Shown: one piece after another, positions 11,882 to 40,136 of the stretch | Numbering within the stretch: position 1 is the stretch's first letter | How the letters are laid out: each line of letters opens with the position of its first letter | IMG/VR virus record: IMGVR_UViG_3300010348_000458 | Location: 1-62,231 of that record | Direction: 5' to 3' (one strand) | Length of the DNA stretch: 62,231 nt | DNA from: a virus | Translations under genes and position numbers: made by a program | Notes under the pieces: generated by a model | Seen by the model: only the letters and a program-made list of their open reading frames with translations | Told to the model about the DNA's origin: nothing | Database searches by the model: none

Positions 11882-11920
11882 GTTTTAATCTCCTTTTTTT
11901 TGAATTGAGTTGATAATCAC

Positions 11921-11948
11921 AGTATAGCGGATTCCCGCGTTAATACAA
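11921..11948 (-). promoter_or_regulatory. Module A minus-strand promoter TTGTAT-N16-TATACT
   Basis: The reverse complement reads cacTTGTATtaacgcgggaatccgcTATACT. The same architecture occurs at 12533-12560 and 13082-13109. Confidence 0.65.
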
Positions 11949-11985
11949 GTGACATTTATCACGTCTTTTTTATGACATATGTTAC
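11949..11985. promoter_or_regulatory. Two operator-like palindromes (gtgacatttatcac, atgacatatgttac) between divergent promoters
   Basis: Each site is adjacent to one -35 hexamer. The arrangement is conserved in modules B and C. Confidence 0.6.
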
Positions 11986-12014
11986 TTGACAAGCATCACC
12001 GGTTCCGCGATAAT
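11986..12014 (+). promoter_or_regulatory. Module A plus-strand promoter TTGACA-N17-GATAAT
   Basis: Consensus -35, 17-nt spacer, 5/6 match at -10. Points away from all nearby CDSs. Confidence 0.65.
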
Positions 12015-12040
12015 CCTGCCATTGACCAGGTAAGTGAGTA

Positions 12041-12104
12041 GAACGAATGTTCGACGTGGGGACGTAGAACGAATGTTCGACGTGGGAATGTAGAACAAAT
12101 GTTC
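12041..12104. repeat. Three GAAC-N4-GTTC hairpin units at 26-bp spacing
   Basis: Boxes at 12041-12052, 12067-12078 and 12093-12104. The first two lie within cgtagaacgaatgttcgacgtggg repeats. Confidence 0.9.
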
Positions 12105-12112
12105 TATTCCGG

Positions 12113-12145
12113 GACAAAAGAAAACCCCGCCGGGTTAAGGCGGGG
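12113..12145 (-). terminator. Intrinsic terminator of 12165-12479
   Basis: CCCCGCC gggttaa GGCGGGG. On the minus strand it is followed by TTTTCTTTTG. Confidence 0.75.
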
Positions 12146-12164
12146 GGGAGGTGGGGGAGGTATA

Positions 12165-12479
12165 TTACTGGCGCCAGCACTCCTCAGGTAAATCGTCTAG
12201 GGTCGTGGTCATCACCACGAGCTCAATGATACCCTGCCGAATCTCGTCTAGGGTGCTGTTAGAGGTATCCCCGTAATTGCCCTCCTCGACGCGCTCGATG
12301 AGGATTTCGTCATCGCTGAGCGGTGTTAGGCTGGAACACCAGCCGAATTCTCCAGTCTCAGTGTTGTAGTATACAATTGGGGTTCCCATGACGCGGGAAC
12401 CGCCGTGGTATTGATTGACATATGCATCTGCGACTACTTTGGCGAACTCCTTGATGATGTAAGTGTGAGCAGTGTTCAT
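12165..12479 (-). CDS. Hypothetical protein, paralog of 10421-10744
   Basis: ATG 12479 preferred over TTG 12485. See the paralog entry for shared sequence. Confidence 0.65.
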   Translation of the reverse strand: MNTAHTYIIKEFAKVVADAYVNQYHGGSRVMGTPIVYYNTETGEFGWCSSLTPLSDDEILIERVEEGNYGDTSNSTLDEIRQGIIELVVMTTTLDDLPEECWRQ

Positions 12480-12532
12480 TTTCAAAATCCTTTCTTTTGA
12501 TTTGATTTGGTTTGGTTTGAGTTGATAGTCAC

Positions 12533-12560
12533 AGTATAGCGGATTCCCGCGTTAATACAA
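12533..12560 (-). promoter_or_regulatory. Module B minus-strand promoter TTGTAT-N16-TATACT
   Basis: Same sequence as module A. Operator gtgacatttgtcac at 12561-12574. Confidence 0.6.
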
Positions 12561-12597
12561 GTGACATTTGTCACAAAAAGAATATGACATTTGCCAC

Positions 12598-12626
12598 TTG
12601 ACAGACTTCTCCGGTTCTGCGATAGT
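12598..12626 (+). promoter_or_regulatory. Module B plus-strand promoter TTGACA-N17-GATAGT
   Basis: Hexamers and spacer read directly. Operator atgacatttgccac at 12584-12597. Confidence 0.6.
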
Positions 12627-12655
12627 CCCCCCATTGACCGGATAACGGAAATATA

Positions 12656-12693
12656 GAACGAACGTTCGACGTGGGAATGTAGAACGTTCGTTC
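12656..12693. repeat. Two GAAC-N4-GTTC boxes at 26-bp spacing
   Basis: gaacgaacgttc at 12656-12667 and gaacgttcgttc at 12682-12693. Confidence 0.85.
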
Positions 12694-12768
12694 TGGTTTA
12701 CCTGGAAGGTTCGCGCAGCGAAAAACTTTCCGCGAAAAACTTTCCTAAAAACTTGCTAAAAACAAAAA

Positions 12769-12800
12769 CCCTGCCACAAGCGTGGCAGGGTTTCTTGGGA
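12769..12800. terminator. Bidirectional intrinsic terminator
   Basis: CCCTGCCAC aagc GTGGCAGGG, with TTTCTT on the plus strand and TTTTTGTTTTT on the minus strand. Confidence 0.75.
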
Positions 12801-12818
12801 GAGGCGCGGCGGTTATTC

Positions 12819-13052
12819 TTAGGATGCCACACGAACCGGGATGCCCTCGATGCCGACGTATAGCCAGCCGATGAATATCCCCCGGCGCTGGCGGCGGACT
12901 CCACAATTGTGGTCGTCCCATTCCGCTCGCGAGCGGTATGGACGCCACCAGGCTTTATCCAATGCAAGCACAATCAGCAGGGGTTTAATCCCCCACCGAA
13001 TCTGCTGGTCAAATGAAAAGATGTTTGGGATTCGCAGGATGAACCTCTTCAT
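12819..13052 (-). CDS. Hypothetical protein
   Basis: 77 aa with an AAAGGAG RBS, placed directly after the module C minus promoter. Confidence 0.45.
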   Translation of the reverse strand: MKRFILRIPNIFSFDQQIRWGIKPLLIVLALDKAWWRPYRSRAEWDDHNCGVRRQRRGIFIGWLYVGIEGIPVRVAS

Positions 13053-13081
13053 TTTCTATCTCCTTTTTTGTTGATAGTCAC

Positions 13082-13109
13082 AGTATAGCGGATTCCCGCA
13101 TTAATACAA
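13082..13109 (-). promoter_or_regulatory. Module C minus-strand promoter TTGTAT-N16-TATACT
   Basis: As in modules A and B. Operator at 13110-13123. Confidence 0.6.
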
Positions 13110-13146
13110 GTGACATTTATCACGTCTTTTTTATGACATATGTTAC

Positions 13147-13175
13147 TTGACAAGCATCACCGGTTCCGCGATAAT
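13147..13175 (+). promoter_or_regulatory. Module C plus-strand promoter TTGACA-N17-GATAAT
   Basis: Identical to module A. GAAC boxes follow at 13204-13215 and 13238-13249. Confidence 0.6.
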
Positions 13176-13273
13176 CCTGCCATTGACCAGAGGTAAGTGA
13201 GTAGAACGAATGTTCGACGTGGGGACGTGGGAATGTAGAACGAATGTTCTGGCTTACCTGGAAGGTTCGCGCA

Positions 13274-13350
13274 GCGAAAAACTTTCCGCGAAAAACTTTG
13301 CGAAAAATTTTCCTAAAAACATTCCGAAAAACTTTACGAAAAATTTTACC
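13274..13350. repeat. 12-14-bp A-tract tandem repeats (gcgaaaaactttcc family, about 6 units)
   Basis: Read directly. A shorter copy of the same family lies at 12718-12765. Confidence 0.8.
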
Positions 13351-13687
13351 CCCTCCTTCTTCGTAACAGGAAAGACGAATTGGAATGGATGAACAGATGA
13401 ATGAATCCGTGTTCATCCATCCAGGCGCTCCCGCCCTTTAATGAAAAATCGCTTGCATCGAAATTAATAAAACCGTCCCGAATGTCACGGTTCTGCATCA
13501 TCCAGATTCCGCCGGTGACATTTTTCCAGGTTGGCGCGGAGATTCGCGCCGGGAGCCATTCAGCGCCCCCGGTGGTGTCCGTGTCCATTTGGTAATCATA
13601 GGAATAGAGACAACGCGCCTCCATTAACCCCTTCTCCACCTGTCTTTTCAGCCATCCCCGGTTAACGGTATTATTTTTTGGTTCCAT
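13346..13687 (-). CDS. Hypothetical protein
   Basis: Internal ATG 13687 with an AGAAAGGA RBS inside ORF 13346-13738. Confidence 0.5.
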   Translation of the reverse strand: MEPKNNTVNRGWLKRQVEKGLMEARCLYSYDYQMDTDTTGGAEWLPARISAPTWKNVTGGIWMMQNRDIRDGFINFDASDFSLKGGSAWMDEHGFIHLFIHSNSSFLLRRRRG

Positions 13688-13701
13688 GGTTTGATCCTTT
13701 C

Positions 13702-13989
13702 TTACAATCCCATTAAGAGATTTGTCAATTCCTGGCACGCGCCAAGGTAATCTTCCGCGAAGATGTTAAACCGTTGCATCTTCTCGCCAATTTCCGATTC
13801 CGACAGTTCCCGAAGTCCAAAGCGCAGAATCACGCCTTGAATGTACCACACGCCTTCAATCCGGCAATCAGGAAAATCCATGCAATGCTTTTCCCACCAA
13901 TGATTAATGTTGTATTCGTATACCTGTTTCGCGGTTTCGGCAAACCGATCCAAAGCATTGAAAAATTCATCCGCGCTATAAATTGGCAT
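13702..13989 (-). CDS. Hypothetical protein
   Basis: 95 aa ORF in the operon, coupled to its neighbours by overlapping ends. Confidence 0.5.
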   Translation of the reverse strand: MPIYSADEFFNALDRFAETAKQVYEYNINHWWEKHCMDFPDCRIEGVWYIQGVILRFGLRELSESEIGEKMQRFNIFAEDYLGACQELTNLLMGL

Positions 13990-14377
13990 TGGATTCCTCC
14001 TCTATGATGGTTTTATATTCCATCCTGATGAGAATTTCAAACTCGTAAATCCCATTCAGGAACCTCTGGTAAAAATCGAAAAACGCAAGTGGAAGAAGAA
14101 ACGGCAAACCGTGAATAATCCACGCCGGAATGATCAGGAAGGCTGGTTCCAGTTCTCCCGGTTCCTCGTCCTCTCCCCATTCATCCGAATAGTAGAGAGT
14201 TTCGGTTGGGGTTCCGCTTGCCGGGTCGTGAAGGCGATTCCCATTGGCATCATACCGGATTTGGAGTCTTACATCTTGCGAAGAAGAGATTTCGTTGTCA
14301 AGGATTTGAGACACTTCCCGCGCCCCTCCGGGAATCTCTTTTCCGTTGACCTTTGTCACATAGATTCTATACTTCAT
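13976..14377 (-). CDS. Hypothetical protein
   Basis: ATG 14377 has an AGAAAGGA RBS. The upstream ATG 14446 has no RBS. Confidence 0.5.
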   Translation of the reverse strand: MKYRIYVTKVNGKEIPGGAREVSQILDNEISSSQDVRLQIRYDANGNRLHDPASGTPTETLYYSDEWGEDEEPGELEPAFLIIPAWIIHGLPFLLPLAFFDFYQRFLNGIYEFEILIRMEYKTIIEEESNANL

Positions 14378-14456
14378 TTTCCTGATCCTTTCTTTTTGAA
14401 TTGTGCTTATATTGTAAGTAATTTCGGACGATTCAGGGTTTGCCATGGGGATTATA

Positions 14457-14468
14457 GAACGGACGTTC
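14457..14468. promoter_or_regulatory. GAAC-N4-GTTC box next to a minus-strand TATAAT
   Basis: gaacggacgttc. The minus strand reads TTAGAACGTCCGTTCTATAAT. Confidence 0.5.
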
Positions 14469-14500
14469 TAAACCGGGTGGGAAGTACAAGGAAAGAAAAA

Positions 14501-14530
14501 CCGCCGGATCACTCCGGCGGTTTCCTTTCC
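14501..14530. terminator. Bidirectional intrinsic terminator
   Basis: CCGCCGGA tcac TCCGGCGG flanked by an A-run and a T-rich run. Confidence 0.7.
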
Positions 14531-14875: not shown

Positions 14876-16099
14876 TCATTCCTGAAAGTGCATTGGCATA
14901 ATAATATGGGAACAATCGTCACTTTCGATCAAAACCGGATGGGTGTTTCTCACGATTTTCATCGTGATAAATTCCGAGTCGCCAACGGATTTCAGCGCAT
15001 TGACCAGGAAATCCAGGTTAATCTTAACCCGGTTGTCGGCGTCCAATTTGCGTATCATGTATTCCGCCCCGACCATGGACTCGACCTTGAAACCTTCCTT
15101 GTTTGCAATAGTCAAATAAATGGAGGACTTATCATTGAAACGAAGCTCAACGGTCAGATTTTTACTGGAATAGGTTAACGCGTTTAGCATTTCGCGCCGA
15201 TTTACCAGAATTGACATCCGAATCGACACATCCCGCGGGATAATCGGGGTATATTCCGGGAATTGGTGTTCTGTTTCTTGACAAATCACATTCCATCCAT
15301 TGAATTTGATTCCAAGGAATTGACCGCCGTTGGTGATTCCATCCGAATTAACAAATCTTCGGGTGATTGCAACAGATTGATCACTGTAAATCCCAAGATC
15401 ACCATTGCCGGAATTACGACAAAAGAACTTGACCAGCGCGCCGGGAATTAACCCCTCCTGATCCTGTTCCAGATTCCACCCGGCATAATTCCACCCGGCA
15501 CACATTTTCCGAGTCGCCAAGGTAAATCTATTGGTTGCCGCCAGCTTGACAACACCATCAGCCAATTTCCGATAATGAACATCCATTAACTGTTCCCGGA
15601 ATGGATCATCGGAAACCGACCAAACCACGGAGGCAAGCGATTCCCGCAAATTGGTTTGATCCATCCATGAGTAAATCTCATTCCCCTTTACAATTTCGGC
15701 AAACAACCGAATCATGGACTCATCGTGAGGGCTTGAAATATCGCCGCCCATGGTGACAGAACCAACATTCCCGCCGTGCTTGTCCCTCCCTTGCAAAGTA
15801 ACATTCCAGAAATTTTGCGATCCAACCGGCGCAACATCCAAAGCAAGGTCAAATTCCGTTGCACCTTTCAGGGTGTCAATTGCGCGCTTAAGCTGTCCAA
15901 CCTGCACAACCGCCCGACTATACGCCGGAGCGCGCGCCGTCCCCACGTCATTAATATTCCCAACCGTTGCACGTCCCCTGGCAAACCAGGCGGTTAATGA
16001 CAACCGATTACCAGAATTGACATCCAGAATCAGGGGAGCGGACTTGTCGGTTAATCGTTGCAATTCTGAAACCGACCTTTTTAATAATTTCGCGTTCAT
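14876..16099 (-). CDS. Divergent second sliding-clamp (DnaN-like) protein
   Basis: 407 aa. N-terminal APLILDVNSGNRLSLTAWF resembles the clamp LPILS...L.L.ATD block. C-terminal HIIMPMHFQE parallels YVLMPMH of 4062-5198. Confidence 0.65.
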   Translation of the reverse strand: MNAKLLKRSVSELQRLTDKSAPLILDVNSGNRLSLTAWFARGRATVGNINDVGTARAPAYSRAVVQVGQLKRAIDTLKGATEFDLALDVAPVGSQNFWNVTLQGRDKHGGNVGSVTMGGDISSPHDESMIRLFAEIVKGNEIYSWMDQTNLRESLASVVWSVSDDPFREQLMDVHYRKLADGVVKLAATNRFTLATRKMCAGWNYAGWNLEQDQEGLIPGALVKFFCRNSGNGDLGIYSDQSVAITRRFVNSDGITNGGQFLGIKFNGWNVICQETEHQFPEYTPIIPRDVSIRMSILVNRREMLNALTYSSKNLTVELRFNDKSSIYLTIANKEGFKVESMVGAEYMIRKLDADNRVKINLDFLVNALKSVGDSEFITMKIVRNTHPVLIESDDCSHIIMPMHFQE

Positions 16100-16209: not shown

Positions 16210-16345
16210 ATTCCCCACGCCCCGCCGACCACCGGAGCCGGAGCCGGAGCCGGTCAGGTCGGCAACCAGGCGGAGCCGGAGGGAACCCCCCCACCCATGG
16301 CGCTAAAACAACGCTAAAACAATGCAAAAACAACGCAAAAACAAT

Positions 16346-16377
16346 AAAAAAGGCGGGGTTCCCAACGGAACCCCGCC
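16346..16377 (-). terminator. Intrinsic terminator
   Basis: 11-bp stem GGCGGGGTTCC/GGAACCCCGCC, followed by T6 on the minus strand. Confidence 0.8.
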
Positions 16378-16383
16378 CCATGG

Positions 16384-16493
16384 CGCTAAAACAACGCTAA
16401 AACAACGCAAAAACAACGCAAAAACAACGCTAAAACAACGCTAAAACAACGCTAAAACAACGCTAAAACAACGCAAAAACAACGCTAAAACGC
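16384..16493. repeat. 11-bp tandem repeat x10 (cgc[t/a]aaaacaa), phased A-tracts
   Basis: Counted directly. A 4-unit copy lies at about 16303-16345. Both copies are preceded by ccatgg. Confidence 0.9.
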
Positions 16494-20910: not shown

Positions 20911-22200
20911 CGTCAACTACCACCCGCTAAAGCGGGTGGCTTGTCCCTGACGCCATCGCAGAAGTAGCGGCGGTGGTCGAGACGTTTGGCAGGTTGACTA
21001 CTGCCCGGCGAGCGATATTGCTCGCCGCGATGTGATCGGCAAATCCAGCAAATCCGCACGACACACAGGAGAACTGACTTTGAGTAGGGCGATTGCGTTT
21101 GTCTACGTGACCACAGGCGGGACAGGTGCGGGACGTATTACGAGGGTCTACAAAGACCACCGGAACACCCACGCGCTGCGCCTTGTAGGAGACAAACGAC
21201 CGGAGTTGGAAGAAAGACCAACTATGCAGCGTGGCGCGCTGGCGGCGACGAACCGTAACCCGCTGGCGAATGCCTTCGAGGTCTTCGAGAGCAATCGCCC
21301 GCTTCGTGTCTTTCGCCTTCGTCACAAGCTGCTTGGAGATAACGTGATTCACATTTCTGGCAAAGCGAGACTCTTTGCCGGACAACTGACGCAGCCGACG
21401 CCGCGCCGACTTGGTGCCTTTGCGCTGCAACTTGGCGCGCAGGCGGCGGTGACGTTGCCTGACGCTATTGACCTCACTGGACGAATGCACTTCACCGTCC
21501 GAGTCAACGGCGATATTCGTCACGCCCAAGTCAACGCCCAACGCGCCCTCAACGTCAATCGGTTCCGGTTCCTGCACTTCGCAGGTGGCAGACAGGAAGA
21601 ACGCGCCGCGGAACGTGACCAGATCGGTTTCGCCCTGGCGAGATTCCAGAAGCGCGCGCTGCCTCTCTCCACAGACGAACGGGATGTGCAAGCGACCCTC
21701 TACCGTCCAGATCGAGACAGTAGACTTGGCAAGCTGCCAGGAAAGGATACGGTCATCGTAGGCAATGCTCCCTGTGGACCGGAACATGCGCTTACTCTGA
21801 CGGTCGAGCTTGTAGGCATCGGCAACCTTGCCAATCACCCGCACGGCGACCTGAGCCGAAAGCCCGAATTGCGACCGGATAGCCTGATAGCACAGGTGAT
21901 GCAGGTCGTACTGCCGGAAGGTCTTGGTTTCCCACGCCGTATCACTCACAAACCGACAGGCGGCGTTGGCCTGTTCCAACGTCCGCTTGAGCGCGTCGGC
22001 TTGTTCGGGAGTAGGGAGCAGTTTGACTTGAGCTATCAGCTTCATGCCAATAATTATAGCACAAACACCCTAAAACTTCAAGTAGGGAAATCAGACCTTC
22101 TGGCATTCTTCGATGTATCGATTGTACCACGAAAGGAGGGAAGCGGCTTCCTCCACCCTTTGAAAGGGGGGGTTTCCGCCGCCGAACCTCATGAAAACCT
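20911..22200 (-). mobile_element. tnpB-only IS200/IS605-family element (approximate ends)
   Basis: Subterminal hairpins at both ends (CCACCCGC taaa GCGGGTGG at 20920-20939; GGAGGGAAGCGGCTTCCTCC and CCCTTTgAAAGGG at about 22135-22170). No tnpA. Confidence 0.6.
20927..22045 (-). CDS. tnpB: TnpB (RuvC-like RNA-guided nuclease family)
   Basis: 372 aa. N-terminal KLLPTPEQ...L. RuvC D (GVDLGVTNIAV), E (AIALEDLEGI), zinc ribbon CPACGH..CVSCG, D (FADHIAASNIARRA). Confidence 0.9.
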   Translation of the reverse strand: MKLIAQVKLLPTPEQADALKRTLEQANAACRFVSDTAWETKTFRQYDLHHLCYQAIRSQFGLSAQVAVRVIGKVADAYKLDRQSKRMFRSTGSIAYDDRILSWQLAKSTVSIWTVEGRLHIPFVCGERQRALLESRQGETDLVTFRGAFFLSATCEVQEPEPIDVEGALGVDLGVTNIAVDSDGEVHSSSEVNSVRQRHRRLRAKLQRKGTKSARRRLRQLSGKESRFARNVNHVISKQLVTKAKDTKRAIALEDLEGIRQRVTVRRRQRATLHSWSFFQLRSFVSYKAQRVGVPVVFVDPRNTSRTCPACGHVDKRNRPTQSQFSCVSCGFAGFADHIAASNIARRAVVNLPNVSTTAATSAMASGTSHPL

Positions 22201-22251
22201 CATACCCCAGCATAACCAGTAAATTGAGATACCTAGCGGCTTCCGTTTCCT

Positions 22252-25827: not shown

Positions 25828-26823
25828 TTAACGGTTCCATCTGGCATCCGCACCCGCCTGGCGGGTTTCCATTTCGTCCAGCCGGTTGTAAATCGGGTCA
25901 AACTTAACCCAATAATGGACATTATCCATTCCCATCTTTTGTTTAAGGATAGATATTACCATCTGGTTGCTTCCAACAACATCCCGCCCCAAAAACTTTT
26001 CCCCCTCATTCCGATATTTGCGGGGACGCACAAGGCTAAACACCTTGTCGCTGGATTGTTCACAATTGGATGTCCATTGACCATCATCCAGACCGGGAAC
26101 GGGTTCATCCCTTGCATCAACTTCCCGTCGCGCTTGTACCCCCACCACAAACGGACATCCAAACGCAAGCGCACCATCTTTCAGGCGGTCTAAAATATCA
26201 CTGGTTGCAATCGCCTTGCTTTCAACCCTTCCCTCCGCTGGAATGCGTTGCAGGTAATCTATAAAGACCATGTCAATAATCTTGCCATAGTCATCCTCGA
26301 TTTTCCGTAATGCCTCCGCCAACGTTGTAACATTCATGGCTGGACGCTTCTTCCTGCGTTCCAGGCTGTGACCAATAAACCATAACGGTTGTAAGATTCG
26401 GTCAACCCCGGAACGAAGAATCCGGCTCCATTCATCGTCCGAAATCTCACCACGCGCCATGTTGGTAACGGACAGTTGTTCGTCTGCGGCAACCATGAAG
26501 CTGTGCAATTCCTCAACAGATTGCTCCCATGTCGCATATACGACAATATGATTTTCGGCGTTGGCGCGCTCCGAAATTTGATTCGCCCACCAGCGCGCCC
26601 ACCGCATCATAAACCCGGTCTTTCCACCGCCGGGTCGTGCAATAATGCTAATCAGTTCACCCGGCAACAACGGCAACATGGTTTTGTCGAGCGTTGGTAG
26701 CCCCAACGGTATCGCCAATGCGGTTTTGTCACGCTTCCCTTTCAGGTAGGCGGTTCCAGCGTTGGATGCCTGTTCCGGCGTGAAAATCAAATCTTCCGCG
26801 TTCGTATCAGCCAGCATAATCAT
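25828..26823 (-). CDS. DnaB-like replicative helicase (RecA-fold C-terminal domain)
   Basis: Walker A ARPGGGKTGF and Walker B MVFIDYLQ. 331 aa. Confidence 0.8.
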   Translation of the reverse strand: MIMLADTNAEDLIFTPEQASNAGTAYLKGKRDKTALAIPLGLPTLDKTMLPLLPGELISIIARPGGGKTGFMMRWARWWANQISERANAENHIVVYATWEQSVEELHSFMVAADEQLSVTNMARGEISDDEWSRILRSGVDRILQPLWFIGHSLERRKKRPAMNVTTLAEALRKIEDDYGKIIDMVFIDYLQRIPAEGRVESKAIATSDILDRLKDGALAFGCPFVVGVQARREVDARDEPVPGLDDGQWTSNCEQSSDKVFSLVRPRKYRNEGEKFLGRDVVGSNQMVISILKQKMGMDNVHYWVKFDPIYNRLDEMETRQAGADARWNR

Positions 26824-27769
26824 CTCCCTCGCTTTCCGTAAAATCCGTGGTGCTGATTCTTTTCGCAGAAGTCCTGTTCACGGCGCGCATATCAAGAATC
26901 GTTTTTGTCAACGAACGCGGACTTCCGATTGTAATTCCAGATTGGCGAAGTTTGCCAACCGCCGCTTGAATTTCCTCAACCTTTACCTGCTGGGTTTGCC
27001 ACTCCAAATAAAACTTTGTCCAGGCAACCCTTTCTGATGGCAACGACTCCCTTCCCGTTGCCTTCACAAACGCATTGTGTAATCCCCATAATGACTCATA
27101 TAGCCAGGATGGGTTGTAATCCGACACGCCGCTCGCCCGGCGTTCCATCTCCCCCTTTCGTATAGCCTCCAAAACGCGCGGGTTTTTCACCTCCCTGCCC
27201 ATTCCGATAATTTCCCATGTCGAAACTGGTGGATTTTGCGATTCATCACCGACAAGGAAATCAGTTTCTTCTGCCGGTTCATCTTCATTTTCAACGATTG
27301 GCGTATTTGTTGTAATCTCTGTTGTAATATCTGTTAATGATTTCGCGGGAATCGCGATATCGTTTTCGCGATAATCGCGAAAACGATTTTGCGAAATTGC
27401 AATTATCCTATTCGCGATTTCTTCCAAATTGGGTTTGTAATGGGTTGTCGGGTTCCCGTTCGCCTTCTTCACCTTCGTCTCCAACAATCCCATGACGACC
27501 AACCGCTTGACGGCGCTTCGGAATTTATAATCACCCATGGCAACTTCATCCGCAAACTCTGCGGTCGTTTTCCAGAACCATCCATCTTCAGCCCTGGACC
27601 GGCTGCTCCAATAGATGCATTGAGATATAATCAATGCCGTTTCAATATCCCCGGTCATTTCAATGAATATCCTTGGGACTACGAGTAAGTTTAACTGTCC
27701 AGATACAGCTTCAATCAACCCAAAAATTTCTTTTTGATTATCCACTCTTCCTCCGTTTTGATGGTGCAA
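26807..27769 (-). CDS. Putative replication initiator / replisome organiser (winged-helix N-terminus)
   Basis: 320 aa, between primase and helicase. N-terminal wHTH-like segment. Contains a TCGCGA-rich palindrome cluster. Confidence 0.45.
   Translation of the reverse strand: MHHQNGGRVDNQKEIFGLIEAVSGQLNLLVVPRIFIEMTGDIETALIISQCIYWSSRSRAEDGWFWKTTAEFADEVAMGDYKFRSAVKRLVVMGLLETKVKKANGNPTTHYKPNLEEIANRIIAISQNRFRDYRENDIAIPAKSLTDITTEITTNTPIVENEDEPAEETDFLVGDESQNPPVSTWEIIGMGREVKNPRVLEAIRKGEMERRASGVSDYNPSWLYESLWGLHNAFVKATGRESLPSERVAWTKFYLEWQTQQVKVEEIQAAVGKLRQSGITIGSPRSLTKTILDMRAVNRTSAKRISTTDFTESEGDDYAG
27353..27385. repeat. 33-bp sequence shared with 60567-60599 (1 mismatch), including a 25-bp palindrome
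   Basis: cgcgatatcgttttcgcgat[a/t]atcgcgaaaacg. The arms cgttttcgcgat / atcgcgaaaacg are perfect. Confidence 0.9.
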
Positions 27770-28871
27770 TATCCTTGCTTTTCAACAATTGTAACAGTTT
27801 TTCTCCGGTCAATGCCCCGCCGTTGATTAAGTCGTCTATCTTGTCGGGAAGTAATAAATCCACTGCCCGGACTCCAAGTTGTTCTTTCATCCGGCGGGCT
27901 GGAGATTTCCAGTCCTGACGCGCCCCCTCTGGCACCTGGTAGGTGTCCGGATCAAGCACAATAAATATCCTCCGAATATCCGGAGATGACAATTCTTTAA
28001 TCAAGTCTCCACGGATGTTCTTGCCGGATATTCCTAATACATGCAACCATGGCGCCAATGGATAATGGTCTGGCGTCCATAGATTCGCGTAAACGACCAT
28101 TGCCTTAATTTCCCCCTCAACCAACAGAATATCCCCCCAAAGCGTTTGTATGGTTGGGTTGGTGTAAAACAGCCGGTTATTGATACCGGACATTTCCGGG
28201 CGGTACTTTCCATGCTTCTGCATTTCGGGATTTAACAGGCGGTGCCTCAATCCAACCAGCTTCCATTGGACGTCCTCTCCGTTTTCCGTTTGGCGGTGTT
28301 CTGTCCGCCAATAAGGAATAGTCAGAGAATCGGATAGTATTTCCGCATCATCCATAAGGTATGATCGCCCCGGACAATATCCAACACCATACGCATCCTG
28401 CCAAAAATCGTTGATTCCACGCTTTCTCCATTCCGCCTTGGCATGAGCATATTGCAACCGATTCAGCGATTCGACATATCGTTCCTGCGCCCCGGACTTC
28501 CGAAGTCTTTCGATCACTTCGGCATCATCCTTGACCGGATCCTCAATTATAATCGGTTGAGAAATCTCAATGGACGACTCTTGGACGTATCTCTCGCCAG
28601 TCAGCCTCTCAAAGGCTTCCTTGAAACTAACGCCATCAAGCCACATCAAGAAATCCAACGCGTCGTTCCAATGACCGCCTGCACCAGGTTCTCCCGTGCA
28701 TTGTCGGCAGAACCAGCCACGCGGCGAAACGCGAAAACGGTCAACCCCGCCGCACTTTGGACATGCACCAGCCCATTCCTGCGCCGATACACGACGCAAT
28801 GCTGTCCTTGTCTTTACCAGGGACATCAAATTGACCCTTTTAATGGCGTTCCTTGCTGAAGGGGCTATCAT
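27738..28871 (-). CDS. DNA primase (zinc-ribbon plus Toprim-like)
   Basis: CPKCGG..CRQC zinc ribbon. LLVEGEIKAM and IFIVLDPD acidic motifs. Confidence 0.7.
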   Translation of the reverse strand: MIAPSARNAIKRVNLMSLVKTRTALRRVSAQEWAGACPKCGGVDRFRVSPRGWFCRQCTGEPGAGGHWNDALDFLMWLDGVSFKEAFERLTGERYVQESSIEISQPIIIEDPVKDDAEVIERLRKSGAQERYVESLNRLQYAHAKAEWRKRGINDFWQDAYGVGYCPGRSYLMDDAEILSDSLTIPYWRTEHRQTENGEDVQWKLVGLRHRLLNPEMQKHGKYRPEMSGINNRLFYTNPTIQTLWGDILLVEGEIKAMVVYANLWTPDHYPLAPWLHVLGISGKNIRGDLIKELSSPDIRRIFIVLDPDTYQVPEGARQDWKSPARRMKEQLGVRAVDLLLPDKIDDLINGGALTGEKLLQLLKSKDIAPSKRRKSG

Positions 28872-31019: not shown

Positions 31020-31220
31020 TTATTCCTCCTTTTGTTCTAATTGCCACGCGGTGAGCGTGGATTCGGATACGGTTTGGTTTGGTTGTTTTGTGTTCATTAT
31101 TTCATAGTGATATTCGCTCCCGATATATAAGATTTTGACAACGGTTCCCCGTCCCATCGGGGTATTGACAACATTACCCAACTTGAAGGCATATCGCTCC
31201 ACTATATCTTTGCCATCCAT
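31020..31220 (-). CDS. Hypothetical protein
   Basis: 66 aa ORF between the lysin and the holin. Confidence 0.45.
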   Translation of the reverse strand: MDGKDIVERYAFKLGNVVNTPMGRGTVVKILYIGSEYHYEIMNTKQPNQTVSESTLTAWQLEQKEE

Positions 31221-32068
31221 TCCATGCTACACCATTCCCCAATCCCAATTCTTCCCCATCCGTTGCGGATTTCATAAACCTGCCGAACGGTTCCAAATGG
31301 CATTGTATATAACTTTGGACAATCTGTGCCTGGACAGGAACGAACACGCAGACCAAGCGGAGCAATCACGCGGTATTTTGGGCTGGTAGTTGGCGGTTCT
31401 ACCGGTGGCGTATCCCCAAACATTTCATCCCACGCGTCCTCCCTAAAAAAGTTTAGGTCAATCAAGCCGCTAAATCCTGGAAGATAAAACTTGTCTCCAG
31501 ACCATTGCCAGATGATCGGGTCACCGCCTCCGCGCAAGGAATTAACCCATCCAGAAGGATAATAATTGACCAGTTGTTCCCACGAACAGGAAACGCGCGG
31601 ATAGGTTGGTAACGGGTAACGCGCAAGCCAGAACCTATCTTCAACCTGCCATGACGGATATGGACTCATGTGAGCGTCCCACCACCATGCTCCGGTATAG
31701 AAAATCATGTTCTGATATTCCCATTTTAGGGCATCCCGCATTTCTTTGACCTTGGCGCGCATCGTTGAATTGCTATATCCCCTGTCCAATTCAACGTCAA
31801 GAACAATTGGGATGTCAAGGTTCGGTGGACAATAAGAACGAATCCGCGCCATGTGTTGCGCGGTTGTGTACCATGGGTCAAATACATGATAAAACGTCAA
31901 TTTCCAGTCCGGCTTGTGGCTTCTGTAATTTGCCCAATCTGCAATAAAATCAGCATCTTGCCAGTTTCCTTGACCACCGCGCAAAATCGCGAATTGTACA
32001 TCATGAATCAGCGAATAATCAGTAACCTGATTTCCAGCCCAGGTGTCAATTCCTAATATCCTCGTCAT
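31202..32068 (-). CDS. Endolysin: GH25 muramidase with C-terminal SH3-like domain
   Basis: ILGIDTWAGN...FAILRGGQG...D.DF...FYHVF fits the GH25 pattern. C-terminal YRVIAPLGLRVRS...GWGRI is SH3-like. Confidence 0.8.
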   Translation of the reverse strand: MTRILGIDTWAGNQVTDYSLIHDVQFAILRGGQGNWQDADFIADWANYRSHKPDWKLTFYHVFDPWYTTAQHMARIRSYCPPNLDIPIVLDVELDRGYSNSTMRAKVKEMRDALKWEYQNMIFYTGAWWWDAHMSPYPSWQVEDRFWLARYPLPTYPRVSCSWEQLVNYYPSGWVNSLRGGGDPIIWQWSGDKFYLPGFSGLIDLNFFREDAWDEMFGDTPPVEPPTTSPKYRVIAPLGLRVRSCPGTDCPKLYTMPFGTVRQVYEIRNGWGRIGIGEWCSMEWMAKI

Positions 32069-34432: not shown

Positions 34433-37107
34433 TACCGCGCTCCTCTCATCCCAAGATACCGCTGTGCTTTCTTGGCGGTCAACGTATGTCCCATTTCAAA
34501 GTGACTGGATTCATAATTATCGTCAACCAGCGTTGAATAATCCTGATAGTTATTATAAGCAAAAAACCACATGCGATGGGCTTGATTTTGTGCCAGGATC
34601 GCGTTTCCATAACAGAACTCGCCCCATCGCTCCTTATAATAAATGGGGTCGCCGACAGAAATTCCGGATTCGTCTGCTACAATTGCAGAAATCGCTTCTC
34701 TTCCATAAATACTGTCAATCATCAGGGAACGGTATGCGCGTTTGTCGAATTGCGGGGCAAGGGATGAATAAACGTTGTCCTTGTTCATATAGAAATCGCC
34801 AATCCACTCATCTGCTGGCATGAGAATAATGTCGTATAGATACAGAGTCGAAGCGCCAGTCCTGATGGAAATCAAATCAAAATTTAATGCAATCGCGAAA
34901 TTTCTTCCCGGAACCTCCCGGTAAGGTGGCATGATGGACAGCCGCCCCAACTCGCAAACATACGGTTGCGGATCAAGCGCCATATCAGAATCGTATCGAG
35001 TTGGAGCGAATGCGGTTGACCCGCAAACTGTATTATTTGTACTTGCCTGCAAACGCAAATAATGAGTATCTGGGCTTGTTTCCAGATAGCGCACAAAAAC
35101 GCGATATTCTCCAATCCATTGATTTCCATAAATCGGATTGATTGTTACTGTCAGAATATCGCGTTCTGCTCCCACCGCACCGCCCCCGGTGTCCTGAATA
35201 TATCGTCCGGTTGTTGAGTATGGCGAACTCGCGAATGTTGCGAAACCAGCCGCAACATCCACAGAGTAAACATTTCCGCCAAGGCTATCATAAAATGGAA
35301 CGTCAGTTAAATTCAGGTATGGGGTATATTCAGAACCGCGCCAATCAGAGCGCAACCCCATAATGACGCGCCCGGTATCATAAAAGGACGGATAAATAAA
35401 GAACGGAGACCATGTGTTACGGATCAACCAGTTTGCTTTTGCTGGAATGTCCCCGCCAACTTCGGTTTCCTCGATGTCAACATAAGGAGTATTTACCGTG
35501 TAAATCTGGCGGTTCTGCTGTTGCGCCCGTGCCGCCGCTGACATTACGCTCGTCAAACGATAGCGAACCCAATATCCGGTTACGCCATTAACTGTGGTTG
35601 TAGCCCAATTGGACGGGCTTCTCCACCAGACACTTCCGATCCCATCGTCGGAAAATGAATGGTAATCGAACCCCAACCCGATTGCTGTATCCATGGCGGT
35701 CTTATCCTGTGTGTTCAGGCGAGTCCATGCCGCGCCCGTCCAGTATTCCCATCGCCCCTCGTCATTGATAGCGATACTGGTATCAAGATCAAATACGGCG
35801 TTTGTGAAAATTCCGGGGCTGGGGGATAGATTGTCACAGCCAAGATAAAGTATGTCGCCAGTTGCGATTGGATTCGGTAAAATATCATAAGGCAGGGACG
35901 ACAACATAAGGTTTGTGCTATAAGTCCCCGTAGATGCGTCATAATAAATGGCGTGTGTGATGTTCTGTTGTGTATGTTTGTTGCAAATAAACACCGATAA
36001 ATCATCGCACGTTGGCTCCATGCCATAGATGCTCCATCCGCCCTCCAGTGTATATATCCATAACTGCGGTGCATCATAGGTGGCATGGTCATAAGATGCA
36101 ATTCTGCGGGTCGCGTTTACCGATGATGCGTTATCGTCAAAGAATATAACCAGGTTTTGTGGATTAGGCGCCCCAAATACAATGTTATCAATGTAAGATT
36201 GAACAACCGTTGAAATATCTGGCGTCCATCCAACTGTTCCGGCTCCGGTAAAGGCTGGAACCGTCCACGATACTTTTGTTGATGATCGTGTTCTTGCTCC
36301 AAAATCAGCGTATGTGCTAAACGTATTAACTGGAGTGGACATTTGATGGCTGATGGATATATTACAATTCACGTTGGCATCAGCCGCATATTGAATATAA
36401 CGAATATAAGCCTTAAGAATAACCCATCGTGTTGTAATAGAGCCAACAGACTGAAAACGCATCCCGGCACTTTTATCATAACCAAACATAAGATAATTTG
36501 AGTTCAGTGAAATTACGACCCCGAACAAATGAGCATCGTCCGTGCTGCTCTCGACTTCATAAGATTCAATCGCTGGCGCACCGTGCTGGTTAGATATTTT
36601 CACACAATCCGCAACGGTTTTCGGCTTGTAGCTTGTCCAAACTCCATGTTCAACCTGAATCTCCAGGTCATCCATGGCAACCATGGAACCGGCACTGAAA
36701 GGAGGCTCGTGCGGGTTGGCATCGTAGGGAACAGAAATATCATAAACAAGCGCGTACCTTGTATTTGTTTCGCGGTCTCCCCTTGCCTCAATCCATACCG
36801 GGTCGGATGGATACGCCGCAACCCAAAACGAGCGCGCCTTCTCTCCGAGCCGCTTCAACTCCTGCATTTGTTGTATCAAATCGTCCTGACATCCGCCATG
36901 TAGTTTGGACGAAAAAACATCCCGGACATTGGCAAACTTCGCCATAACCAGGCGGCGACCATCTGACAGCGAAGAGTCTTGCCAAATCCCACCGTTTTCA
37001 AGTTCCGGGTTTGCCGGACTCCACCCGCCATCATCAAGCTTAAACTTGGCGTCTATTAAAGAAATAGTCGTCGTTCCGTCCGTAATTCGTAAAATTCCAC
37101 TTGTCAT
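34432..37107 (-). CDS. Large tail-associated protein
   Basis: 891 aa, immediately after the tape measure gene. Confidence 0.7.
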   Translation of the reverse strand: MTSGILRITDGTTTISLIDAKFKLDDGGWSPANPELENGGIWQDSSLSDGRRLVMAKFANVRDVFSSKLHGGCQDDLIQQMQELKRLGEKARSFWVAAYPSDPVWIEARGDRETNTRYALVYDISVPYDANPHEPPFSAGSMVAMDDLEIQVEHGVWTSYKPKTVADCVKISNQHGAPAIESYEVESSTDDAHLFGVVISLNSNYLMFGYDKSAGMRFQSVGSITTRWVILKAYIRYIQYAADANVNCNISISHQMSTPVNTFSTYADFGARTRSSTKVSWTVPAFTGAGTVGWTPDISTVVQSYIDNIVFGAPNPQNLVIFFDDNASSVNATRRIASYDHATYDAPQLWIYTLEGGWSIYGMEPTCDDLSVFICNKHTQQNITHAIYYDASTGTYSTNLMLSSLPYDILPNPIATGDILYLGCDNLSPSPGIFTNAVFDLDTSIAINDEGRWEYWTGAAWTRLNTQDKTAMDTAIGLGFDYHSFSDDGIGSVWWRSPSNWATTTVNGVTGYWVRYRLTSVMSAAARAQQQNRQIYTVNTPYVDIEETEVGGDIPAKANWLIRNTWSPFFIYPSFYDTGRVIMGLRSDWRGSEYTPYLNLTDVPFYDSLGGNVYSVDVAAGFATFASSPYSTTGRYIQDTGGGAVGAERDILTVTINPIYGNQWIGEYRVFVRYLETSPDTHYLRLQASTNNTVCGSTAFAPTRYDSDMALDPQPYVCELGRLSIMPPYREVPGRNFAIALNFDLISIRTGASTLYLYDIILMPADEWIGDFYMNKDNVYSSLAPQFDKRAYRSLMIDSIYGREAISAIVADESGISVGDPIYYKERWGEFCYGNAILAQNQAHRMWFFAYNNYQDYSTLVDDNYESSHFEMGHTLTAKKAQRYLGMRGAR

Positions 37108-40100
37108 ATTGACATTCCTCTCCGCACAGACCGTTGAATCCGTGCATCCAGTTTCGTTGCGTCCGTTGTTCCATAAATGTTCACGCCACCCATATTGATA
37201 ACAACCTGCTTTCCGGCAGAGACGGTAACCGGCATCGGGGTTTGTGGAACAGTAAACATTGATCGTACCAATTCGTTGTGCGGAACAATTGTACCACCCC
37301 GACTCGGAACAAACAACTCCGCTCCGCGCTCTCCGACAAGATAAGGGCTTCCGGATTCGACATAACCGCCCATTGCCTTCGGCGCAAACTTAACTCCGCC
37401 ATTCATATTTAATAACCGTAACAACCAGTCTGGAAGCACCATTCGAATTAGCTTTTCGATTTCCCTTTTCACGCCGTCAACCGCGTTTGTTACTATTCTG
37501 GAAATTTCATTCCATGTATTTGTTATGGTTGATACCAGACCACTCCAAAACGAATCCCAATCTCCCTTAATCCCATCACCAAACGCTTTGAGTACGTCTT
37601 TAATATAGTCCGTTGTAGCTTTCCACAGGGATTGTATTGCAAGAACTTCCGTGGCGGCAATGTTTGTTACAGCCTTCCAAAGAGCGCCCCATTTTGCTTT
37701 CACGTCAACCTCTGTTTTTGCCCATTCCGTGTCCCAATCGACTTTTTCCCTTTTCCACCATTTCGATAGAACGCCCTCTGTGGCACCGCGAGTTGAGAAC
37801 CAAGCCAAGAGCGAACTCCATTTTGCTTTCATGTCAACATCTGTTTTTTTCCATTCCCCGTCCCAACTAACTTTTTCCTCTTTCCACCATTTCTCTAGAA
37901 CGCTCCCTATGCCACTGCCAGTTGCTAAGCCAGTCCAGAGCGAACCCTTCATTTTTTCGGCAATGCGCGCACCAGTCGCAACCGGGTCAAACCCCTCGCC
38001 CTCTGGATTGAAAAGGATATTCCATATCTCATTAATGGTTTCGCGCCAACCAGGTCCAAACGCATTATTCAATTCAGCGCGAAATTGAGCTACGGCAATC
38101 CAGAATTTTATCTTTGCCTTTTCCCATTCAATGACGAGCGGCTTAAATGCATCCTTCATCAGGCTCGCAAATCTCAATTTCAACTTTTCAGCCGCTTCGT
38201 CAACGTCCTTATTGAACTCTGCAAAGGCATCGCCAATTCCTCCACCGAGACCTCCAAAATCTTCCTCGTCAAATTCGCCGCCACCACCGCCGGACTTCCG
38301 CTTTCTTTCGATATCCTCCAGTAGCTTTGCGTATTCCAGCAACGCATCTACCAGCTTTTTTTGCATATCGAGTTGCTCTTTTGCGATTTCCAAAAGCTGT
38401 TTTCTGACCTCTAAATCTGCTTCCGCCTGAATGCGCGCCTGCTTTGCGGCTTCTCTTTCTGCATAAGCCGCATCTATTTCTTTCTTCTTCGCCGCCAACT
38501 GTTGACGACTTGCTCCCTTGCGTAGCATATCATTGTATTGTCGGATTCCCATATTGACAGCGGCGCTTGCGCGCTCTTCGCGCTTTTTGGCTTCTTCAAT
38601 TCTCTTTTCTGCTTCGGCAACAAGTTCCTCCGCAACGGCAAGCTCTGTTTGTCGGCGCGCAAGCAGGGCAATCTCTTCCCCGTATGCACCAGCCGCCAAC
38701 CTGACTTTTTCGTAAAAATCTTCGCCAATTTGTTCACCTCGACCAAGCGCTTCTATCATTTCCTTGTAAACAGCGGCATAGGTTTTTATCGCCTGTTCAT
38801 CGTCATCAAAAATGATAGTCAGGGCATCTTTCAGCGGAGCCTTGATGGAGTCAAAAACATCCCAATCTATATTTGTAAACCCATGCAACCATTCTGCCAT
38901 GGTTGCCGCACCCCATTCATCAATATATGGAACGATCAATGGCGGCGAGTGGGGACGAAACCATTTGGCAATCAGATTTCCAACAAATCGGATGGCAGAA
39001 ACCAGAACTGTTGTTGCGCCCCTCACAATCCCGGTTGCAAATTCAGTAATGAATCGAAACCCCCACTCAAACGCATCCGCCATGTATTCTTGTAATTTCA
39101 GGAGGGTATTTCCCAAATCATTAACAAACACATCACTGTTTTCTGCTGTCAACTTGAACGCTTCAGCAATAAATTGAATTGCGCCAGCTAAATTAACAAT
39201 TGCTTGATACAGGCTTCCGCCCTTGTTGAAACTTTTGCCAAGCTGACTGCCTTTGGCAAGCGCCTGTGTTATAGCGTCAAGAAAACTCTTGATACCCTGC
39301 GTGACATACAGCCATGCCCGCAAGAACGGTTCACCAAGAACCTCTTGGAATTCCAGAACTTCACGGCGCAATGAGCGCCATTGTTTTGCTGGTGAAAGCA
39401 TGGAGGCTTCATAGACTCCCTTCAACTCTTCGTCGCCAACGCGTAGAACTTCATTGAAGGCGACTTGGACCTTTTCCAATTCTGTTAATTCGGCAGAAGT
39501 TTTCCCAACCGATTCGGCGTATTTCTCAAAGCTTGCTTGCAGGTCAACGTTCAACCCAGCTGTGCGAAGAACGCGTTTATTGTAGGTGATAATACCATAC
39601 ATCATGTGTTCTAGCGCAATTGACGAATCTTGACCCATTATCACCGCCGCGCCCTGCGCAACCCTGGCAAAATCAGTCGCTTTCGCAAGGTCAAGTTGGT
39701 AACGCGCCATATTTGCCAGCAAATAGTTCGTCGCGTCTCCCGTGACATTGAACGACCTGACCTCTTTTTCGTATTGGTCGAGCTGTGTCTTGGTATATCC
39801 GGATCGAGTGCCTAACAGGTCAACCACAATTGCAAGCTCTTGAATACGACCTGCATACGCCGTTGATTCTGTGATAAGCTCTGTCATTGCCTTGGATGCA
39901 ACGGTGATTGCGCCAACGGCGGCAGTTGCGGCTATCGCAATGAGACCAAATCCAGCCGTTATTCCAGCAAGACCAATTGCGCCACCAGTCGAAAGCCCGC
40001 TGACAGCATTGGTGACATATTTTGTTCGATCCTTGACTTTGTCAAGGACGCTCATGTATTCTTTCGCACCAATCTTAAATGACTTGGTGTTGAAGATTGC

Positions 40101-40136
40101 GTTGATGCCGATTCGGTTTGTGCCAACGTAGGGCAT
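37104..40136 (-). CDS. Tape measure protein
   Basis: 1010 aa. Gly/Ala-rich hydrophobic N-terminal segment, long A/E/K-rich helical core. Position after the chaperone pair. Confidence 0.85.
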   Translation of the reverse strand: MPYVGTNRIGINAIFNTKSFKIGAKEYMSVLDKVKDRTKYVTNAVSGLSTGGAIGLAGITAGFGLIAIAATAAVGAITVASKAMTELITESTAYAGRIQELAIVVDLLGTRSGYTKTQLDQYEKEVRSFNVTGDATNYLLANMARYQLDLAKATDFARVAQGAAVIMGQDSSIALEHMMYGIITYNKRVLRTAGLNVDLQASFEKYAESVGKTSAELTELEKVQVAFNEVLRVGDEELKGVYEASMLSPAKQWRSLRREVLEFQEVLGEPFLRAWLYVTQGIKSFLDAITQALAKGSQLGKSFNKGGSLYQAIVNLAGAIQFIAEAFKLTAENSDVFVNDLGNTLLKLQEYMADAFEWGFRFITEFATGIVRGATTVLVSAIRFVGNLIAKWFRPHSPPLIVPYIDEWGAATMAEWLHGFTNIDWDVFDSIKAPLKDALTIIFDDDEQAIKTYAAVYKEMIEALGRGEQIGEDFYEKVRLAAGAYGEEIALLARRQTELAVAEELVAEAEKRIEEAKKREERASAAVNMGIRQYNDMLRKGASRQQLAAKKKEIDAAYAEREAAKQARIQAEADLEVRKQLLEIAKEQLDMQKKLVDALLEYAKLLEDIERKRKSGGGGGEFDEEDFGGLGGGIGDAFAEFNKDVDEAAEKLKLRFASLMKDAFKPLVIEWEKAKIKFWIAVAQFRAELNNAFGPGWRETINEIWNILFNPEGEGFDPVATGARIAEKMKGSLWTGLATGSGIGSVLEKWWKEEKVSWDGEWKKTDVDMKAKWSSLLAWFSTRGATEGVLSKWWKREKVDWDTEWAKTEVDVKAKWGALWKAVTNIAATEVLAIQSLWKATTDYIKDVLKAFGDGIKGDWDSFWSGLVSTITNTWNEISRIVTNAVDGVKREIEKLIRMVLPDWLLRLLNMNGGVKFAPKAMGGYVESGSPYLVGERGAELFVPSRGGTIVPHNELVRSMFTVPQTPMPVTVSAGKQVVINMGGVNIYGTTDATKLDARIQRSVRRGMSI

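Follow-up and report, generated by a model that had tools for sequence, protein, structure and literature searches.

What does an intergenic element do when it points the best promoters of its region against the neighbouring genes, and when it is repeated three times among the small genes of a phage? This question is raised by IMG/VR virus record IMGVR_UViG_3300010348_000458, whose whole stretch of 62,231 nucleotides (hereafter the window) is a 62-kb tailed-phage genome with nearly all genes on the minus strand. A preliminary description had recognised there three copies of a divergent-promoter module, named A, B and C in what follows, which would fire transcripts that lack an open reading frame (ORF) and carry GAAC hairpins into the oncoming genes. 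Compared with their relatives, the modules have a conserved and mosaic anatomy and take part in the gain, loss and swap of gene cassettes. As an explanation of the whole, we propose with moderate, evenly poised confidence that they are lineage-wide boundary cassettes, with operator-bound divergent promoters and a countertranscript gated by a LexA-type repressor.

The core of the modules is a 121-nt repeat with three copies at 11909, 12521 and 13070, with identities of 82% and 98% to the reference. By repeat families and alignment, the shared sequence blocks continue downstream of this core, and the modules reach lengths of 280-340 bp. Read on the plus strand, each is composed of the leader, -10 and -35 of a minus-strand promoter, the palindrome GTGACATTTRTCAC (at 11949, 12561 and 13110), a 9-bp A/T linker, the palindrome ATGACATWTGYYAC (at 11972, 12584 and 13133), a plus-strand promoter, the heptamer ATTGACC and the GAAC boxes (Table 1). 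The minus promoters of B and C are displaced by +612 and +1161 relative to that of A. The centres of the two palindromes are 23 bp apart, and each palindrome abuts one -35 hexamer. After the boxes, modules B and C add A-tract repeats of 12-14 bp, and modules A and B close with the intrinsic terminator of the convergent upstream gene.

All the elements of the layout first described were found in their places, with some amendments. Two or three boxes at 26-bp spacing are present in A (three) and B (two), but C has two boxes at 34 bp; likewise, the terminator that the transcript was said to reach exists on the minus strand at A and B, but not in C. The plus promoters had been called near-consensus, and indeed they match the sigma-70 consensus in 11, 10 and 11 of 12 positions (-10 GATAAT or GATAGT), being the three best matches in the 5 kb within 9500-14500. 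It was also possible to confirm that no conserved ORF follows them. The sole recurring ATG lies inside a box with the spacer GAAT and is absent from B and from other copies; the 40-aa frame that it opens in module C, which has no Shine-Dalgarno sequence, was considered as a small gene and rejected. A fourth, rearranged module, D, was detected as well. Its minus promoter (-10 TATAAT) serves gene 10421-10744 and its weak plus promoter, TCGCAA-N17-TACACT, serves the gene of a 43-aa protein.

Relatives were collected with homologs of the 104-aa cassette protein and with a pattern scan of metagenomes and genomes, giving about 20 related loci (handles beginning with L); the pattern scans contributed ten further loci from metagenomes and one from genomes. 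Neither the clamp-like protein nor the operator pattern nor the 26-bp unit found a match in IMG/VR, and among deposited phages no relative was found by DNA similarity to the window. Conservation of the modules had been chosen beforehand as a refutation test. The layout is kept in 14 distinct module cores of related metagenomic phages, always between small ORFan genes, and these cores are mosaics of alternative sub-blocks, of which there are three for the minus-promoter spacer, four for the linker, three for the distal operator and three for the type of plus promoter. The ATTGACC heptamer is invariant and at a fixed distance in 14/14. In L011, whose paralog protein is 70% identical, three complete modules surround different genes, and the best sigma-70 matches of L019 are likewise directed against the genes. 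The gene content between modules differs, or the same genes are relocated, in L012, L015, L017, L019 and L022; the 43-aa gene is elsewhere in L022.

The exchange of cassettes can be followed at strain level. L005 is about 99% identical to the window over 11.8 kb and has a single module, with A-specific bases on its left and C-specific bases on its right. It lacks module B together with the 104-aa and 77-aa genes (about 1.16 kb between A and C), and the crossover is located within about 90 bp of identity spanning the operators and the plus promoter. Considering that L005 carries an A/C hybrid at the junction of this 1.16-kb difference, the modules act as substrates of homologous recombination. 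The triplication is true of the window, and the three-module form is present in four independent assemblies, but it is contingent: one hybrid takes its place in this strain.

This behaviour is close to that of the promoter-early stem-loop (PeSL) cassettes of T4-type phages, which are repeated sigma-70 promoter and terminator motifs (Arbiol et al. 2010, PMC2839356; Comeau et al. 2014, PMC4122927). Both are repeated composites with a sigma-70-like promoter in each copy and a stem-loop terminator (in A, B and relatives, not in C), both are intergenic in a hyperplastic variable region and mostly upstream of ORFans, and recombination among the copies accounts in both cases for indels and replacements between close relatives, the indel of L005 ending inside A and C. 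The motif of T4-like myoviruses is compact, its stem-loop overlapping or adjoining the promoter. The modules exceed it four- to fivefold in length, belong to another phage lineage with another inferred host phylum, and add two palindromic operators, a second promoter that faces back, arrays of boxes and A-tract repeats, features not described for PeSLs. If the reading is correct, PeSL-type cassette shuffling extends beyond T4-like phages to a poorly studied, uncultured host group, with evidence at the strain level. Each kind of element is known; what is new here is the combination of PeSL-like cassettes with dispersed operators and phage promoters bearing LexA-type boxes.

The palindromes next to the -35 hexamers are part of a wider set of operators. 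The window contains 12 copies of GTGAC-N4-GTCAC with at most one mismatch where 1.2 would be expected, and at nine sites an operator directly abuts the -35 of a leftward promoter with a -10 of the TAnAAT type. Besides 10814, 11949, 12561 and 13110, these sites are 16196, 18025 (in the unit 18025/18048), 24192, 25811 and 28929. The elements, boxes included, are not confined to the three modules. The promoters concerned precede cassette genes, the clamp-like gene, an early operon and the primase. Assuming that transcription starts 7 nt past the -10, the operator centres would lie near -41.5 of the minus promoters and near -42.5 of the plus promoters; by analogy, -41.5 is where a class II activator would bind, or lambda CI at PRM. 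An operator-anchored scan in which the plus promoter was not required indicated that the operator with its leftward promoter is the universal unit, and that the plus promoter, ATTGACC and boxes are an optional extension.

The plus promoters of A-C have the identical operator-abutting layout, using the second operator. Since this architecture matches that of the promoters that drive genes, they seem to belong, as genuine promoters, to a single class. Behind every complete plus promoter come ATTGACC and, from about +20, one box or more. Furthermore, where the -10 is weakened from GATAAT to GATAGT or GACAGT an extended -10 TG is present, which is the behaviour expected of a working promoter. A separate operator-like sequence, TTGACCTTTGTCAC at 14346-14373, overlaps a plus-strand promoter-like TTGACC-N16-TATACT inside the minus-strand gene 13976-14446.

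The second group of palindromes, the GAAC boxes, is still more enriched. For AGAAC-N4-GTTC the window has 23 occurrences where 0.27 would be expected, and a single one of them falls outside 10118-14469. Perfect sites number 22 per genome, and near-miss boxes are scarce (only 3 with one mismatch in 5 kb). Among 59 distinct box contexts of the whole family the arms GAAC and GTTC are invariant, while the spacers take 13 different forms that respect R..Y in 59/59, giving the consensus TAGAAC-RNNY-GTTCTA with flanks. The four core pairs never vary, and covariation is for this reason uninformative about RNA; the inner pair is A-T, G-C, G.T or A.C, with no strand bias (G.T 14, A.C 8). The settings are also varied, as there are 26-bp arrays of 1-7 copies (seven in L022), 15-bp arrays of 2-8 copies and single boxes some 20 bp from terminators. 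Relative to a predicted plus promoter, the first box is found at about +19 to +31, and other boxes adjoin terminators where no promoter is seen. Taking into account the invariant arms, the R..Y spacers, the unvarying core pairs and the varied settings, the boxes appear to be palindromic sites in DNA rather than RNA hairpins, and they behave as operators for a dimeric protein.

The GAAC units had been presented at first as RNA hairpins, and the plus promoters could accordingly produce small non-coding RNAs whose GAAC/GUUC hairpins and A-rich repeats act in trans, as sponge or decoy, or as cis-antisense regulators of the convergent gene. We consider this unlikely. Strong plus promoters with no conserved ORF behind them are what it predicts, and bidirectional terminators in several relatives would define RNAs of 110-270 nt. 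The predicted folds are far more stable than those of shuffled sequences (z of -4.7 for A and -6.7 for B), but this stability follows from the palindromes, where successive boxes pair with each other on either strand, and module C reaches only -1.3. In the hairpin GGAAGGTTCGC..GCGAAAAACTTTCC a G.U pair can form on the plus strand only. The inner pairs of the boxes show no strand bias, and in two terminator hairpins G.U is formed by the minus-strand RNA where the plus strand has C.A. Fixed arms with free loops are the reverse of a hairpin recognised by a protein, and boxes are found outside any predicted plus-strand transcript. Moreover, the plus-strand 3' end is not conserved: a usable U-tract is present in only about a third of the modules, and A and C of the window lack a plus-strand terminator.

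The specific forms of an RNA function fared worse. No family reached the gathering threshold in the Rfam scan, and no family, CRISPR-DR included, matched the hairpin unit at E up to 1; with 26-nt units that have no spacers, mimicry of CRISPR repeats seems disfavoured. A CsrC-like hit at 10129-10373, over the 15-bp array, scored 39.9 against a threshold of 61 bits and was taken as a repeat artefact. In common with CsrB, CsrC and RsmZ, this segment has a tandem hairpin array followed by a plus-strand terminator. The sponge for CsrA, one form of the protein sponge suggested initially, was rejected because the hit is below threshold and the GGA is lost in relatives (AGGT to ATTT in L017 and L022).

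As a site in DNA, the box resembles a well-known operator. In Firmicutes and Actinobacteria, the motif recognised by LexA is GAAC-N4-GTTC (PMC3323433, PMC4234289, PMC3091678). The box consensus equals the Gram-positive-type LexA box (Cheo box CGAACRNRYGTTYC). The same LexA motif is reportedly present in Dehalococcoides. The host of this phage may be framed by three markers: the named relatives of its dnaN are all metagenome-assembled genomes (MAGs) of Anaerolineae or Chloroflexota, its lysin has the monoderm-type architecture GH25 + SH3_3, and the nearest relatives of its terminase are actinophage terminases. On these grounds the host would be a monoderm, probably of the Anaerolineae. To our knowledge, the GAAC-N4-GTTC LexA box is in use across all the candidate host phyla. 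We infer that the boxes, such as the DNA of TAGAACGAATGTTCGA, are candidate sites for a LexA-type repressor, most simply the LexA of the host.

According to the model that we favour, a composite intergenic cassette would bound the single-gene ORFan cassettes of a hyperplastic early region. In minus-strand order it comprises the terminator of the upstream gene, 0-7 A-tract repeats, 1-7 perfect boxes, the back-facing sigma-70-type promoter, two operators, and the promoter and leader of the next gene. One dimeric factor would bind the operators and co-regulate at least ten early promoters, and a LexA-type repressor, most simply host LexA, would occupy the double-stranded GAAC boxes. From about +20 of the back-facing promoter, these boxes would gate an ORF-less countertranscript which, once released, would oppose or insulate the convergent upstream gene. 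On this reading the regulatory grammar would be unusual, in that the strongest promoters of the early region face against its genes and are coupled to multi-copy LexA-type sites, and the pairing of promoter and box would offer a testable link between DNA-damage signalling of the host and expression of phage accessory genes.

By analogy, the control would resemble that of P1 in phage GIL01 and the output that of lambda OOP. In GIL01, host LexA represses P1 through dinBox1/dinBox1b, downstream of the start site (PMC4551915). The modules share with it a sigma-70-type phage promoter with LexA sites of the Gram-positive type 3' of the start, here a predicted one, and in neither is a classical CI-type repressor evident. 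In contrast, GIL01 has one full and one half site and its P1 drives replication and immunity genes, whereas the modules, present in many copies per genome, have 1-7 perfect sites and lack an ORF; nothing like gp7 or gp6 was identified in the window, and LexA is here the putative binder. Lambda OOP is a single defined RNA of 77 nt with its own terminator and has been reported as LexA-sensitive. The transcript predicted here is similarly short and ORF-less and would start from a promoter directed at the 3' end of a convergent gene, but the 3' ends of the modules are not conserved and the unit is repeated at many cassette borders. A further parallel is given by the stoperators of mycobacteriophage L5 and the CIR operators of phiC31, many copies of repressor sites in short early intergenic regions, which can stop an elongating polymerase. 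The boxes are likewise numerous in short early intergenic regions, beside promoters and terminators; unlike stoperators, which are asymmetric, orientation-dependent single sites of 13-14 bp, they are palindromic, in tandem and coupled to a back-facing promoter.

Several observations weigh against the gated countertranscript. In type 3 cores (4/14) no -10 is recognisable, yet ATTGACC stays at the same distance and the box is kept, so the boxes may not need the promoter; boxes are also found with no plus promoter upstream. The 7-8 perfect sites per array are more than simple repression needs, and a spacing of 15 bp may be too tight for neighbouring LexA dimers. In many relatives a bidirectional terminator would end the countertranscript short of the gene. 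Among about 60 proteins of the window scanned with Pfam or PHROGs, no regulator, helix-turn-helix (HTH), LexA-like or S24 protein was seen, the sole exception being a weak HTH_23 in the likely small terminase. Finally, the scan of GTDB genomes placed one relative in a MAG labelled Pseudomonadota; being a 2.6-kb contig in an unreliable maxbin bin, it was given little weight.

Box arrays are not restricted to this lineage. Scanning IMG/VR for three boxes at a 26- or 15-bp period with free linkers returned eight loci in unrelated contigs (L028-L035, GC 0.48-0.71), a raw count, part of which could be expected from tandem repeats alone. In these arrays the arms are conserved and the spacers and linkers divergent, those of L029, L030 and L033 adjoin DnaA-box clusters, and the genes neighbouring the arrays in the eight contigs have no family in common. 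The recurrence in unrelated viral contigs suggests a more general phenomenon; it speaks for a conserved host factor that binds the arrays and lends weight to their reading as decoys. We note that L029-L031 have operator-like sites GTGTC-N4-GTCAC beside the box array. In its broad form, tandem arrays of perfect LexA-type boxes would be a recurrent phage device to capture or sense the host SOS repressor, either as LexA-titrating decoys or as multi-site gates on the strong back-facing promoters, through which damage signalling would flip transcription at every cassette border, a proposal that we regard as unlikely. Distinctly unlikely is the narrower version, where the arrays, independently of the plus promoter, sink host LexA or another host factor as the genome replicates, leaving SOS derepressed or the factor freed. 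The perfection of the sites, the copy number of 1-8 per array, the boxes away from promoters and the unrelated arrays, with their DnaA-box clusters and unlike neighbours, are consistent with a sink; on the other hand, the position of boxes at about +20 of every plus promoter speaks of a relation between promoter and operator, and chance tandem repeats lessen the value of the array count.

It must also be considered whether the back-facing promoter and boxes have any dedicated function, or are vestiges of cassette duplication and inversion after a recent triplication. The cores of A and C are 98% identical, the triplication is absent from a near-identical strain, the equivalent promoter of module D drives a real gene and type 3 cores show a decayed -10. 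Against such vestiges, relatives with no more than 47-70% protein identity still keep the architecture, changes in the -10 go together with compensating changes in the extended -10 TG, and both the ATTGACC of the 14 cores and the box arms of the 59 contexts are invariant, which makes this reading quite improbable. That the modules are transcription-activated replication origins, as their promoter, iterons and AT-rich repeats in the order of a promoter and an unwinding element and the DnaA-box clusters beside the arrays of L029, L030 and L033 might suggest, is very improbable, since DnaA boxes are not enriched in the window (14 against 16 expected), module number differs between near-identical strains, and a better candidate exists 14 kb away, in the iterons at 27304-27418 of the O-like initiator gene, next to the DnaB-type helicase. 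These iterons are 12-bp and 23-bp repeats with TCGCGATAATCGCGA palindromes, and they likely form a lambda-style origin.

Table 1. Position of the modules, boxes and genes in the window (promoters, operators and terminators as predicted)
Feature	Position	Strand	Remarks
Module A, complete	11882-12164		spans leader and promoter of the 105-aa gene up to the 104-aa gene's terminator; by repeat families and alignment
Module A minus promoter TTGTAT-N16-TATACT	11921-11948 (-35 11943-11948, -10 11921-11926)	-	drives gene 11564-11881
Module A operator pair GTGACATTTATCAC, 9-bp A/T linker, ATGACATATGTTAC	11949-11985		
Module A plus promoter TTGACA-N17-GATAAT	11986-12014	+	11/12 sigma-70 match
ATTGACC at predicted plus-strand start site	12021-12027, 12633-12639, 13182-13188	+	
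Module A boxes, three GAAC-N4-GTTC	12040-12105		26-bp spacing
Intrinsic terminator of gene 12165-12479	12125-12145	-	
Module B, complete	12480-12818		
Module B minus promoter	12533-12560	-	
Module B operators	12561-12597		
Module B plus promoter	12598-12626	+	extended -10 TG; 10/12 sigma-70 match
Module B boxes, two	12655-12694		26-bp spacing
Module B A-tract repeats	12718-12760 (tandem units 12718-12745)		
Module B terminator	12764-12795	-	
Module C, complete	13053-13345		no terminator; abuts 3' end of gene 13346-13690
Module C minus promoter	13082-13109	-	
Module C operators	13110-13146		
Module C plus promoter	13147-13175	+	11/12 sigma-70 match
Module C boxes, two	13203-13250		34-bp spacing
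Module C A-tract repeats	13274-13347		
Module D, rearranged relative	10786-10879		by inverted-repeat search
Module D inverted operator pair	10814-10850		
15-bp x8.3 tandem array, one box per unit	10117-10240		copy number 2-8 in relatives
Single box TAGAAC-N4-GTTCTA	11130-11143		beside bidirectional terminator 11082-11113
Single box	11486-11499		20 bp from terminator 11520-11539
Single box	14456-14469		beside terminator-like hairpin near 14497-14522
104-aa cassette gene	12165-12479	-	paralog of 10421-10744, 70% identical
77-aa cassette gene	12819-13052	-	absent from L005 along with the 104-aa gene
43-aa hydrophobic protein gene	10925-11055	+	weak operator-abutting promoter; ends at perfect bidirectional terminator
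Terminase gene	56932-58503		
Portal gene	55291-56916		
Tape measure gene	37104-40136		
Lysin gene	31202-32068		GH25 + SH3 (SH3_3)
Primase gene	27738-28871		
O-like initiator gene	26807-27769		
DnaB-type helicase gene	25828-26823		

The module region is a run of small ORFan genes from 10.4 to 16 kb, for none of which the profile scans gave a Pfam or PHROG family. The paralogy noticed from the start between the products of 10421-10744 and 12165-12479 was confirmed at the identity given in Table 1. For the family of the 104-aa protein, AlphaFold2 (AF2) returned a model with a predicted local distance difference test (pLDDT) score of 91.5 and the fold helix, three strands, helix; no structural relative of it was found in PDB or BFVD, and judging from the model the family is not an obvious DNA binder. 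Its homologs are also present in phages without modules (L008-L010). A p107 homolog with the same TATAAT promoter was located in another phage lineage (GC 0.55; L009 2080-2200, L010 1160-1290), where it lies behind a repeated motif, GGGGGTAAATGTCA, that shares the half-site AAATGTCA with the operators of the window. The 43-aa protein could be a membrane peptide or resemble a type I toxin.

Other repeats are located around the cassettes. The 15-bp array sits in a non-coding gap of 925 bp and is followed by a terminator at 10336-10361 with its U-tract on the plus strand; upstream of it, in the same gap, C/A-rich 30-bp repeats (x3.5) and related 56-nt copies occupy 9729-10020. At 11163-11369, between two bidirectional terminators, there are 13-bp tandem repeats, CAATACACCCCCA x3.7 followed by ACACCTACTCACC x12.6, reduced in L022 to about three copies. 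At 11464-11437 the minus strand has a weak site that resembles a promoter, and the tract may give a repeat-rich non-coding transcript. At 16301-16491, an 11-bp A-tract repeat, CGCTAAAACAA, is present about 14 times, split by a terminator hairpin at 16350-16383. The repeat, conserved also in L018 and L019, runs up to an operator (16500); considering that its period matches the helical repeat of DNA, this segment is probably intrinsically bent.

Outside the cassettes, the window has two sliding-clamp genes. The canonical dnaN (4062-5198) is 70-84% identical to dnaN genes in islands of metagenomic chromosomes (L023-L027) that resemble integrative and conjugative elements (ICEs) and read Rad52-SSB-RadC-dnaN-DUF6094 helicase; the second (14876-16099) is highly divergent. 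The host-like dnaN loci were tried as a guide to the host chromosome and set aside, as they proved to be ICE-like islands without boxes. An IS605-family TnpB gene (59311-60561) is placed between the packaging genes and the plus-strand arm, and its comparison with plasmids gave nothing informative for host identification. A plus-strand gene of 380 aa at 21080-22222, with no family match, coincides with a local GC peak (0.56). The region 84-1472 encodes a Ro60/TROVE protein with a vWA domain, and the Rfam scan returned no Y-RNA-like family anywhere in the window. The cassette region is directly followed downstream by four genes for N6/N4 DNA methyltransferases (2462-3169, 5274-8117, 8126-8746 and 8755-9495); one of these enzymes has 947 aa, with a long insert that parts its methylase halves.

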